64,000 nucleotides of DNA from assembly GCF_057098645.1 (NCBI RefSeq), contig NZ_CM169472.1. One strand, 5' to 3'. Shown here piece after piece: positions 9,499 to 19,114 of this stretch (its first letter is position 1; each line of letters opens with the position of its first letter). The notes beneath the pieces were generated by a model. It was not told where the DNA came from, searched no databases, and saw nothing but the letters and a program-made list of their open reading frames with translations. The translations under genes and the position numbers were made by a program.

Positions 9499-9580
<82 letters not shown>

Positions 9581-13955: not shown

Positions 13956-16846
<2,891 letters not shown>

Positions 16847-16854
16847 GCAACCGT

Positions 16855-16934
16855 GCCGGATGCGGCGTGAACGCCTTATCCGGCCTACATGTCGCACGAA
16901 CTATGCAGGCCCGATAAGCACTGCGCATCGGGCA
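16855..16934. repeat. REP palindromic unit(s) downstream of ascB
   Basis: GCCGGATGCGGCGTGAACGCCTTATCCGGCCTAC followed by a degenerate second unit; explains artefact ORF 16704-16928. Confidence 0.75.
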
Positions 16935-16959
16935 ATCTGGAGTTTGGCATCAGTCAAAA

Positions 16960-17379
16960 TCAAAGAAACCATTCCGGCTTAACGCCAAATCGGGCTGAAA
17001 GTGCCTTAATGTGGGATATTGTCAGGGATCGTTGTCCAGACAAAATCTGACTGACCAGGGATTTAGAGCCGATTTCGTTCTTCAAATCCGCATAGGTCAG
17101 ATTATGTTGATCAATCAACGTGCGAAGTAACGCCACGCCAACCGGCATTGCCGCAACGGCTTTGTCGAACTCTGCAAACTTTTCGTTGTTGTTTTCATAC
17201 TCTGCAATGCGGCTCGCCAGAAAGTCGATAAGTGGATTGGTGTCATCTTCTTCAATCAAATATTCGACCAGTTCCAGTGCTTCACGATAATCATCTTCTG
17301 AGTCACTGCCTCCCAGAAAGGGGACTGCATTGACCAGTTCTCTTGTTGCTTTAACAGCGCGTGCAGCATTAGCAGTCAT
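16960..17379 (-). CDS. HigA-like antitoxin (HTH, XRE family)
   Basis: 139-aa ORF; C-terminal HTH (SKSLVSQILSGQRSLTISHIKALSARFGV); 4-nt overlap with upstream toxin ORF; toxin-first order typical of higBA. Confidence 0.75.
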   Translation of the reverse strand: MTANAARAVKATRELVNAVPFLGGSDSEDDYREALELVEYLIEEDDTNPLIDFLASRIAEYENNNEKFAEFDKAVAAMPVGVALLRTLIDQHNLTYADLKNEIGSKSLVSQILSGQRSLTISHIKALSARFGVKPEWFL

Positions 17380-17687
17380 TCTTTGTTCTCTCTGTAGTAA
17401 CGTGTCAGTTTGTCATACTCTGCGTGATTCGTTATGTGCTTCACAAAGAACCGCTTATTAACAAAGTTTATGTAGGCAATAACCCTAAGATTGTTCCCGC
17501 CGACATCCAGAACGTACCATTTGTTGCGATATTTAAAATTGTCGAGGTTGGGAAACGCCGTTCGCATTTCTTCTGGCGTAGAAAAATCCGTTTCCTTAAT
17601 AACCCGATACAATGCCTGAAGAGCCAGAGCGTCGTTAGGATATTTACGCGCAGACTCTTCAAATGGCGCTTTAGAAATGATGTGCAT
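17376..17687 (-). CDS. HigB-like toxin (RelE/ParE superfamily mRNA interferase)
   Basis: 103-aa basic ORF with DNFKY and VGGNNLRV motifs shared with HigB-type toxins; coupled to antitoxin. Confidence 0.75.
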   Translation of the reverse strand: MHIISKAPFEESARKYPNDALALQALYRVIKETDFSTPEEMRTAFPNLDNFKYRNKWYVLDVGGNNLRVIAYINFVNKRFFVKHITNHAEYDKLTRYYRENKE

Positions 17688-17848
17688 TTTTAAGTTTTAA
17701 CTTCCTTATAGTAAGTAAACAGCCACATCTGCGAGTTCTATCCTCATGTGTTCGGAAACTATAGCTCATCAAATCCAGGTTCACAATATGTAAACACTTG
17801 CGCGTGATATAATTACCCCCAAAATCCTCATAACCACTCTGCAAAAAG

Positions 17849-18622
17849 TCAGTTCTGATTCACCCCATCAAGCACATCCCCCTTTATCAAGCAACGTTGC
17901 GTCAGCGACAGATCTTCCGTTTGTGTGTCGCGCCCGGCGATGGGTTTGAGGACGAGTTTACGGTTGGGGGTATAAGTAAAACGCGTGAGCGCGGGATAGC
18001 TTAACTTGCCAAACCAGCCGTGAACACGCTGCCATTTGGCGTCTTTTACCTGATACAGACTGGTTATCCAGTAACCAGAATTAAACTGCATATCCAGCAA
18101 TTGCGTGTGACCATTGCCTTGTAAATCCAGCAAATCATCTACGCCAGTTTTGCTTGCAGTGTAGAATCCCCAGGGTTCAAAGACACAGGGACGGCCTTCG
18201 TGCGTGAACGTCATGAGGATTAAATGTGCATAGGGCGCCAGACCATTACCGGCACTTGGCAACCAGATAACCAGATCCTGAATGCCGTTACGATCCAGAT
18301 CGGCGCGATAGAGCTGCCCTTTGCCCGCCATATTTGCCAGCAACCCCACTGGCACCGTCCAGGATTTACCCGCGAGGTCTTTAGCGGTTAATTGCCAGTA
18401 ATCCTCTTCATTTGGCATCTTCTCAAGCGTCACGCCAGCAACGCCGATTTTTCTAAAATGCCAAGTTTGCTCGGTATAATAAGGCATGGTCAGGAGAGGT
18501 TTCAGCGCCCGCTTTTGCGCATATTCGCTGCCACTCATTGGCAGATATTCGGTAAAGCTGGTGGCCAGTGCAGACTGCACTAAGCTCAATAAAAAAGCGC
18601 ACATCCCTGTTCTGATGTTCAA
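17849..18622 (-). CDS. exported protein of unknown function, possible FG-GAP/VCBS-like calcium-binding loops
   Basis: 257-aa ORF with N-terminal signal peptide (MNIRTGMCAFLLSLVQSALA); motifs ADLDRNGIQDLV and LDLQGNGHTQLLD; starts 24 nt downstream of hycI stop on the same strand. Confidence 0.7.
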   Translation of the reverse strand: MNIRTGMCAFLLSLVQSALATSFTEYLPMSGSEYAQKRALKPLLTMPYYTEQTWHFRKIGVAGVTLEKMPNEEDYWQLTAKDLAGKSWTVPVGLLANMAGKGQLYRADLDRNGIQDLVIWLPSAGNGLAPYAHLILMTFTHEGRPCVFEPWGFYTASKTGVDDLLDLQGNGHTQLLDMQFNSGYWITSLYQVKDAKWQRVHGWFGKLSYPALTRFTYTPNRKLVLKPIAGRDTQTEDLSLTQRCLIKGDVLDGVNQN

Positions 18623-18646
18623 TTCCCTGAATTCCCTAATGAAGAA

Positions 18647-19114
18647 TTATTCTTCCACCGCTAACTGCGCAAATCCGCCGTTCCCTTCCCAGCCTTCCAG
18701 TCGTTGATAAACGGTTTCTACCGCATCTTTAATCGGCTGGGTCATCGGGTAGTAAAAGCCGACGATATCCGGCTGGATGCCGAGGAAAATCACTTCGCCA
18801 ATATCTTCTTTCAACTGATCGATAAGGTAGTTCAACGGCATGTTATGGGTAGTCATCATAAACATCTCGGCGATATCATCCGGGTCGATGATGCGGATCT
18901 CGCCGGGGTTTAGCCCCATATCAGTGGCGTCGACAATCAGCAGTCGTGTCGGGCGCAGTTCACGGATAGCGACAATGTCGTTTTCCGGTGCGCTACCGCC
19001 GTCAATCACCACCCAGTTACCTTTCGGCGCGGCGGCGCACTTTTCCGCCAGCAGCGGACCTGCGCCATCATCACCCATCATGCTATTGCCAACACAGAGT
19101 AAAACGTCAGTCAC
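18647..19114 (-). CDS. hycI: hydrogenase 3 maturation endopeptidase
   Basis: 155-aa ORF; N-terminal GNSMMGDDGAGP motif of hydrogenase maturation proteases; last gene of hyc operon. Confidence 0.9.
   Translation of the reverse strand: MTDVLLCVGNSMMGDDGAGPLLAEKCAAAPKGNWVVIDGGSAPENDIVAIRELRPTRLLIVDATDMGLNPGEIRIIDPDDIAEMFMMTTHNMPLNYLIDQLKEDIGEVIFLGIQPDIVGFYYPMTQPIKDAVETVYQRLEGWEGNGGFAQLAVEE

Follow-up and report, generated by a model that had tools for sequence, protein, structure and literature searches.

A HigB/HigA-family toxin-antitoxin pair between the hyc and asc operons of Escherichia coli, at a locus that appears to be losing its toxin

The stretch of DNA analysed here, referred to as the window, is 64,000 nucleotides of contig NZ_CM169472.1 (RefSeq assembly GCF_057098645.1). 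Between its hyc and asc operons lie two small genes on the minus strand in toxin-first order: a higB-like toxin gene (17376-17687, 103 aa, WP_000547563.1), delimited by the list of open reading frames and by profile matches, and a higA-like antitoxin gene (16960-17379, 139 aa, WP_000126294.1). The stop codon of higB and the start codon of higA overlap as ATGA. The original prediction, made without database searches, had proposed a coupled, toxin-first HigB/HigA-like pair on the minus strand with the toxin motifs DNFKY and VGGNNLRV. The span 16960-17687 is exact, both motifs are found in the 103-aa reading frame, and the family assignment was borne out by profile and homologue searches (PF09907 for the toxin, HTH_3 for the antitoxin, and a full-length match to the K-12 complex). 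The pair is already annotated by PGAP/RefSeq as a HigB-family toxin-antitoxin operon: the toxin is named "type II toxin-antitoxin system HigB family toxin", and the antitoxin "helix-turn-helix domain-containing protein" or, in some genomes, "HigA family antitoxin". No published work on this locus was found for the RefSeq protein accessions or for higB together with hycI or ascB. Positions 16700-18800 of the window are 99.9% identical to the O145 strain RM9872.

The toxin matches the HigB_toxin profile PF09907 over model positions 4-73 of 74 (Pfam, E=1.8e-23). Among the sequences of solved structures, the K-12 HigB chain 5IFG_A aligns with residues 1-100 (E=1.9e-22), as does the solved Shigella HigB (E about 2e-22). 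An alignment of 24 family members, drawn from K-12 HigB, SehA-distant relatives, and plasmid- and phage-borne toxins, has 16 invariant columns, and the window toxin matches every one of them, including H2, D49, N50, F51, G63, G64, N65, R68, H88 and Y91. The Rts1 (Proteus vulgaris) HigB-HigA system shares the name, the toxin-first order and a ribosome-dependent toxin of the RelE superfamily. We rejected an assignment to this type (PF05015, "HigB-like") because PF09907 is the sole significant Pfam match of the toxin; the antitoxin of Rts1-type systems carries its helix-turn-helix at the N-terminus (PMC7160566).

The antitoxin has a predicted N-terminal toxin-binding and dimerisation domain and a C-terminal helix-turn-helix. 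Its only Pfam domain is HTH_3, on residues 85-138 (E=7.9e-9), and K-12 HigA (5IFG_B) aligns with residues 9-138 (E=2.5e-35). Other family resources were less informative, as PHROGs places the toxin in an unnamed family and the antitoxin among generic regulators, and NCBIfam returned no model at threshold for either protein.

A sigma-70 promoter is predicted upstream of higB at 17758-17786 on the minus strand (TTGTGA, a spacer of 17 nt and TATAGT; 9/12 in a consensus scan), and its geometry is the same in relatives from 10 other genera or plasmids. A palindrome that we read from the sequence as an operator, O1, GTTTACATATTGTGAAC (GTTTACA-TAT-TGTGAAC; 17779-17795, minus strand), overlaps the predicted -35 box. 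An exact repeat search with a 6-nt seed misses O1 because its arms differ at one position. The consensus GTTyACATAwTGTrAAC is kept upstream of higB on the chromosomes of seven genera (Leclercia, Mangrovibacter, Citrobacter, Phytobacter, Yokenella, Kluyvera and Pluralibacter), on one Leclercia plasmid and in one phage. O1 is also the only stretch, of 19 nt, that the window shares with the PRO-type allele within the spacer upstream of higB.

Relatives at ten other loci have two palindromes upstream of higB, GTTyACATATTGTAAAC and GTTyACATAATGTAAAC, which flank the -10 box, the right arm of the first forming the -35 box. At the position of the second, just downstream of the -10 box, the window has what we take, by position, to be a degenerate operator remnant, O2 (17735-17757, minus strand): relatives carry an intact GTTCACATAATGTAAAC, and the window reads TTCCGAACACATGAGGATAGAAC. 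None of the E. coli chromosomal alleles examined has an intact O2. The ribosome-binding region of higB (17688-17707, minus strand) is likewise unusual: AAGGAAG at 17701-17707 is followed by an allele-specific 8-nt insert, ACTTAAAA, at 17688-17695, which widens the distance from the Shine-Dalgarno sequence to the ATG to 13 nt. The PRO-type allele lacks the insert and has a spacing of 5-6 nt. Because O2 is degenerate and the spacing is 13 nt, regulation and toxin dosage may not be the same as in the plasmid modules, and expression of the toxin could be weak. The 3' tail of higB, which holds the Shine-Dalgarno region of higA (ACAGAGAGAAC; 17385-17414, minus strand), is retained in every allele with a deletion of the toxin alone.

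On the ascB side, a REP/BIME-type repeat lies between the ascB stop codon and higA (16855-16950, plus strand; repeat match 16855-16888). The original prediction had placed a REP element there, which is supported by a second copy at 9546-9579: the two window copies are within one mismatch of each other, with a chance expectation of 0, and a query containing the element has a median of 32 matches per E. coli genome. The element is thus of the dispersed, imperfectly palindromic, roughly 35-nt kind that occurs in many copies per genome. The predicted AT-richness of the segment was also recovered, with a GC content of 0.405-0.458 over 17000-17800 compared with 0.52-0.59 in ascB and hyc.

On the other side, the pair is separated from hycI by a gene that the prediction had missed. 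This gene, orf257 (17849-18622, minus strand), encodes 257 aa with an N-terminal signal-like segment (251 aa from the PGAP start at 18604) and lies outside the toxin-antitoxin module. Its product has no Pfam, NCBIfam, PADLOC or PHROG match, and an AlphaFold2 model built from a 12-sequence alignment (mean pLDDT 50) is too poor for a fold search. Homologues are found in Salmonella (70% identity), Klebsiella spallanzanii and Leminorella. In Salmonella, the gene order is hycG-hycH-hycI-orf-hydN-hypF, without a toxin-antitoxin pair, and nucleotide similarity to the window spans hyc and reaches nearly to the end of orf257 (window position 17885). The gene is therefore ancestral downstream of hycI, and the toxin-antitoxin module was a later addition behind its stop codon in the Escherichia lineage. 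As a unit, the module is about 0.9 kb (16955-17848), with TCAGT repeated directly on either side (16950-16954 and 17849-17853). A single copy of this 5-bp repeat is left in the K-12-type allele; the repeat fits an insertion with target duplication and a deletion by microhomology alike and cannot distinguish between them.

The comparison with K-12 led us to read the junction differently. The original prediction had put the distance between ascB and hycI in K-12 at about 150 bp, and the gap is indeed 158 bp in MG1655 (ascB end 2842414, hycI end 2842573). The pair does lie between the two genes, but together with orf257, so that the DNA present in the window relative to K-12 amounts to about 1.67 kb rather than the 0.73 kb of the pair. 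Comparing the junction across genomes was expected to reveal strain-variable accessory DNA. The variability is real, but the K-12 state is not an unoccupied site. After the single TCAGT, the K-12-type junction continues with 30 of the 32 nt of the 3' end of orf257, which is joined to the 5' end of the same gene through a 7-bp microhomology, ACATCCC. Since the gap holds both ends of orf257, it is a derived deletion scar from which both the toxin-antitoxin module and the body of orf257 have been lost. No allele with an intact orf257 and no higA was seen among the 8 orf257-bearing loci sampled, the window included. An assembly labelled E. albertii has the order hycI-orf-higB-higA-DUF4259-like-hydN and was considered as an outgroup. 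It was rejected, as its hyc genes are 94-98% identical to those of the window; overall it is about 93% similar to the window, as close as divergent E. coli alleles, and so does not date the insertion.

Outside E. coli, relatives of the toxin occur in 1,017 plasmid records, and pairs of about 80% identity with an adjacent helix-turn-helix gene are carried by Leclercia, Enterobacter and Citrobacter plasmids. The 94-kb Cronobacter phage JK004 carries a pair of 78% identity. These plasmid and phage modules, known from annotation only, are 78-80% identical to the window pair in the toxin and 74-78% in the antitoxin, and they have identical gene lengths, gene overlap and helix-turn-helix segment as well as the same operator consensus. 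They have both operators and a short leader, whereas the E. coli chromosomal copy has O1 only and a leader of about 70 nt past the -10 box. Chromosomal pairs of 75-82% identity are found in Leclercia, Mangrovibacter, Kluyvera, Citrobacter, Phytobacter, Yokenella, Pluralibacter and Serratia; in 9 other genera, chromosomal copies never lie beside hycI or orf257, and DNA similarity to relatives from other genera is limited to window positions 16962-17690. Searches with higB and higA DNA found the E. coli version at 0 places on plasmids, and only on the chromosome, in single copy. The best explanation is that the module belongs to a lineage that is mainly plasmid-borne in Enterobacteriaceae, a reading with which the low GC content of the segment also agrees. 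A search of genome contigs with HigA returned 16 loci, none of them from Escherichia, yet higA is present in the type strain of E. coli; as the search misses a known copy, we did not use it to argue for absence in other Escherichia species.

The likeness to plasmid and phage HigA is uneven along the protein. The C-terminal DNA-binding domain is 89% identical and the helix-turn-helix segment GSKSLVSQILSGQRSLT is the same in both, while the N-terminal toxin-binding domain is only 62-68% identical. Recognition of plasmid operators by the window HigA is thus plausible, while its cross-neutralisation of a plasmid-type toxin would be uncertain.

Two characterised systems share the layout of the pair. 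K-12 HigB/HigA (YgjN/YgjM; PDB 5IFG, 6KML, 5YCL) also belongs to PF09907, with proteins of 104 and 138 aa compared with 103 and 139 aa here, and its operon is likewise toxin-first, with a 4-nt overlap, a C-terminal helix-turn-helix and two palindromes around the -10 box. K-12 HigB arrests growth and HigA rescues it; the toxin cuts mRNA only when it is translated, in most cases between the second and third positions of a codon, and HigA represses its own operon, the induction of which depends on Lon (PMC2814082). PF09907 toxins as a group have been classed as ribosome-dependent and toxin-first (PMC11980606). However, the K-12 proteins are only 39.8% (HigB) and 46.7% (HigA) identical to the window pair over their full lengths, K-12 higBA lies between fadH and rlmG rather than between hycI and ascB, its operator half-site is TTGCCA instead of TTTACA, and one operator of the window pair is degenerate. 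Given identities of only 40% and 47%, we regard the pair as a paralogue of K-12 higBA, and translation-dependent mRNA cleavage by the window toxin would follow from its 40% identity to K-12 HigB.

Salmonella Typhimurium SehA/SehB (STM4031/STM4030, as named in the notes of the record) is another toxin-first system of the HigBA family, with two palindromes over the -35 and -10 boxes (PMC7160566). Of the two characterised toxins compared, SehA is closer to the window toxin than K-12 HigB is (57.3% identity), but SehB is only 44.6% identical to the window antitoxin, and sehAB lies between fdhE and yiiD with the half-site TTTTCA. Given 57% and 45% identity, another operator and another locus, we rejected orthology and consider SehAB a homologue only. 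The layout of the operators is common to the three systems and their half-sites differ (TTTACA here, TTGCCA in K-12 higBA, TTTTCA in sehAB); HigBA paralogues that reside in the same cell are therefore probably insulated from each other at the level of DNA binding.

A third likeness is to a defense system. In PD-lambda-2, a HigB-like gene comes first, followed by a gene that is HigA-like at its start, and both PADLOC profiles match the window pair: PD-lambda-2_A (PDLC03979) matches the toxin with E=6.8e-16, and PD-lambda-2_B matches the antitoxin with E=2.4e-14, over only positions 9-115 of 402. PD-lambda-2 protects E. coli against lambda-vir (PMC9519451; Vassallo et al., 2022). Its B protein, of about 400 aa, ends in a peptidase and is the component that is toxic, and a third, P4-antitoxin-like gene is required for defense (PMC9519451). 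The 139-aa antitoxin of the window has no peptidase and there is no third gene, which rules out that the pair is PD-lambda-2: the region downstream of higA contains just the REP element and ascB, which is convergent, and upstream lies orf257, which has no PADLOC match.

We then measured how the locus varies in 5,426 complete E. coli genomes. DNA matching higB is found in 1,091 of them (20.1%) and DNA matching higA in 2,508 (46.2%), in agreement with the prediction that the segment is not universal. By difference, about 1,417 genomes (26.1%) carry an orphan higA. The K-12-type scar is present in 2,763 genomes (50.9%), O157:H7 and BL21 among them. There are at least five site alleles, and not the two that a simple presence or absence of accessory DNA would imply; the commonest non-empty one has the orphan antitoxin. 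Where the genes are present, they are well preserved. All 1,091 higB copies are full length and 95.8-100% identical, with no truncated class, and every higA copy spans 80% or more of the query, only 5 of the 2,508 falling below 95% identity. A strain whose adjacent orf257 is only 85% identical encodes the same toxin protein as the window.

The sequenced E. coli alleles contain two independent deletions of the toxin. One removes 17415-17825 and leaves higA and orf257 intact (three loci). The other, AH21-type, removes 17409-18440 and leaves higA and the first 61 codons of orf257 (six loci); its junction is found in 835 of the 5,426 genomes, including the type strain ATCC 11775. With end points at 17408/17409 and 17414/17415, both deletions take the promoter and O1 and spare the last 33-39 nt of higB with the ribosome-binding site of higA. 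In a further allele, seen at two loci, higBA and O1 are kept, and some 158 bp of different sequence stand in place of orf257. None of the loci examined had the toxin without the antitoxin. Orphan HigA is also found in Kluyvera georgiana and in Serratia sp. DD3, where a 25-codon tail of higB is kept. In some E. coli alleles IS621 or IS1397 lies nearby, and some lineages lack the asc operon and have a DUF4259 gene directly next to higA.

To see whether the orphan antitoxin is being preserved, we compared 15 higA sequences, in which 22 segregating sites are synonymous and 6 non-synonymous (98 and 319 sites available, respectively; P=1e-9). The bias persists among the 10 orphan copies (16 versus 3; P=4e-8) and among the six copies with the AH21 junction (9 versus 2; P=7e-5). 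The protein WP_000126294.1 is encoded by 9 of the 15 sequences, including the window and 7 of the 10 orphan copies, with as many as 14 silent differences from the window in the orphan copies that encode it. One frameshifted orphan higA was seen. About half of the polymorphisms in the orphan clade also occur in paired alleles, and these may be older than the deletion or have entered by recombination; sites found only in the orphan clade number 4 synonymous and 2 non-synonymous (P=0.03). Purifying selection on higA after toxin loss is thus suggested but not established. The native promoter is lost in these alleles and no terminator-like site is predicted on the coding strand between hycI and higA. 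A weak promoter-like site inside the retained 5' fragment of orf257 scores no better than chance. Any expression of orphan higA would therefore come from read-through of hyc and orf257 or from this weak site.

We consider it likely, with a probability of about 0.8, that the window pair is a type II toxin-antitoxin operon of the HigB(PF09907)/HigA family and that the module is now decaying in E. coli. Every sequence feature of this family that we examined is present. By homology, HigB would be a small endoribonuclease of the RelE fold that cuts mRNA in the ribosomal A site. It would be neutralised by the N-terminal domain of HigA, a dimer of which would bind GTTTACATATTGTGAAC over the -35 box through its C-terminal helix-turn-helix and repress its own operon, and the ATGA overlap would couple the translation of the two genes. 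In this scenario, a module from a mainly plasmid-borne lineage would have inserted right after the stop codon of orf257 and then behaved as a decaying addiction module. Deletions of the toxin and promoter that spare higA and its ribosome-binding site have been tolerated and have spread; those removing the antitoxin alone would be lethal, and none was seen. The window strain has the intact and probably still active version. What the data show directly is the family of the pair, the architecture of the operon, the conservation of the operator, the frequencies in the population, the deletion junctions and the polarity against Salmonella; toxicity, ribosome-dependent cleavage, autorepression and the cause of the deletion bias are here what we infer from sequence comparison.

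Other readings of the same data deserve consideration. The original prediction had raised possible roles in phage defense or stress persistence, and the pair could serve mainly in abortive infection, phage infection freeing HigB to shut down translation before the phage cycle is completed. The matches of the toxin to PD-lambda-2_A and of the antitoxin to the N-terminal part of PD-lambda-2_B, together with the protection that PD-lambda-2 affords against lambda-vir (PMC9519451), speak for this idea. We nevertheless think it improbable: two of the three PD-lambda-2 components are missing here, among them the gene needed for defense, the site between the hyc and asc operons is no defense island, and the loss of the toxin in most strains counts against strong selection for defense. 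That loss, along with the degenerate O2 and the 13-nt spacing imposed by the insert upstream of higB, might instead suggest that the window toxin is an attenuated or silent relic, and that the pair persists because it is harmless and has no toxin-antitoxin activity. This too strikes us as improbable, since the residues invariant in the family are all intact, higB shows no truncated class in its 1,091 carriers, the protein is unchanged beside an orf257 of only 85% identity, and the absence of antitoxin-only deletions is expected only of an active toxin.

A third possibility shifts attention from the pair to HigA, which may be the important product with or without HigB, either as an anti-addiction factor against incoming plasmid higBA modules or as a regulator co-opted through hyc read-through. 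Anti-addiction has been proposed as a role for orphan antitoxins (PMC7354431). Consistent with such a role, some 1,417 genomes have higA without higB, very few copies have diverged beyond 5%, the protein is often identical in orphans in spite of silent differences, substitutions in the orphans and in the AH21 clade are mostly synonymous, and the DNA-binding domain, helix-turn-helix segment and operator consensus are those of the plasmid and phage modules. On the other hand, the private sites of the orphan clade are few and half of its polymorphisms also occur in paired alleles, the two deletions take away the native promoter and operator and make expression of the orphan higA uncertain, the N-terminal domain has diverged from the plasmid and phage versions, and half of all strains live without higA. 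On balance we find this reading rather unlikely. In its most specific form, selection would have kept the antitoxin rather than the pair: a promoterless orphan HigA at the tail of the hyc (formate hydrogenlyase) unit, present in about a quarter of E. coli including ATCC 11775, would provide immunity to related plasmid or phage higBA modules, by neutralising their toxin and/or by repressing their shared operator, or would act as a domesticated regulator. This proposal is speculative and we regard it as unlikely.

Taken alone, the locus is one further uncharacterised HigBA paralogue in the accessory genome of E. coli. Relative to the literature that we searched, three aspects appear to be new: the relationship of the pair to a plasmid lineage, the reading of the K-12 junction as a scar, and a series of alleles in which the module erodes and orphans outnumber intact pairs. 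The spacer between ascB and hycI in K-12 records two losses and is no virgin attachment site. Under the reading that we favor, that of a decaying HigB/HigA operon, the locus offers a natural and countable series of toxin-antitoxin decay, from the intact pair through two independent deletions of toxin and promoter to complete loss. The roughly 1,400 genomes with an orphan antitoxin could be used to test for selection on such genes, for instance against the 80%-identical plasmid modules. Such a pattern is what one would expect if the toxin has to be lost first when a toxin-first operon is dismantled, and K-12-type higBA decays likewise: 4,376 genomes match it, 2,824 of them in full, and one class consists of higA with a 74-nt tail of higB.

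The 257-aa gene between higBA and hycI, orf257 (17849-18622, minus strand), encodes a conserved hypothetical protein with a signal-like N-terminus and lies 25-42 nt downstream of hycI. Homologues occur in Salmonella, where the gene (70%) is also placed after hycI, and in Klebsiella spallanzanii and Leminorella. Among E. coli alleles, DNA identity falls to 85% in orf257 whereas it is at least 95.8% in the adjoining higBA. Searches of the product against Pfam, NCBIfam, PADLOC and PHROG returned no match, and AlphaFold2 yielded a poor model (pLDDT 50). The protein carries two D-x-D-x-N-G-like motifs, ADLDRNGIQDLV and DLLDLQGNGHTQLLD, both of which are invariant.

In the higBA-only allele (L003, positions 1268-1425, and L032), about 158 bp stand in place of orf257. 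This replacement is unrelated to the window except for the 19-nt palindrome of O1, the operator upstream of higB, and from O1 to the Shine-Dalgarno sequence of higB the two alleles have entirely different spacers. The window-type higB leader also contains an 8-nt insert, ACTTAAAA, at 17688-17695 on the minus strand (compare L003, 1254-1270), which seems to have arisen by local duplication of TTAAAA. With the insert, the Shine-Dalgarno sequence lies 13 nt from the ATG, against 5-6 nt in leaders that do not carry it, and the insert may affect toxin dosage.

Three proteins from rare E. coli contigs (P0181, P0185 and P0186) join a 5' fragment of orf257 in frame to full-length HigA, passing through the tail of higB in the higA frame (...TLLQREQR-MTANAARA...). 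They are 202-209 aa long, have a signal-like N-terminus, and correspond to the L004-type junction, a toxin deletion that leaves higA and a 5' fragment of orf257. In a 162-aa protein of Klebsiella aerogenes (P0031), an XRE-type HTH (PF01381) precedes and is joined to a HigB domain from this lineage (PF09907); the arrangement is either a fusion or an artefact of gene calling.

The canonical K-12 higBA locus (L033; NC_000913.3, 3233728-3234455) is also polymorphic, with the same toxin-first erosion as the pair at the hycI site. It has a match in 4,376 of 5,426 complete E. coli genomes, full-length in only 2,824, and one recurrent class retains higA with only the final 74 nt of higB.

At the hycI site, on the left flank of higA, ascFB is absent in some E. 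coli lineages (L005, L008, L009, L030 and L031), and its position is occupied by a DUF4259-like gene of 142-145 aa followed by hydN. Because these lineages are without ascFB there, the asc operon is itself a variable insertion at the higA junction. The higA of L031 (1201-1595) is an orphan copy with a 25-bp deletion and is annotated as frameshifted; identity is below 95% in only five of the 2,508 copies, of which this is one. Insertion sequences were also found on this side: two unrelated strains (L007 and L010, positions 1-766) have IS621 (IS110 family) between ascB and higA, directly adjoining the REP element, and IS1397 (IS3 family) lies within the same spacer in a further strain (H12).
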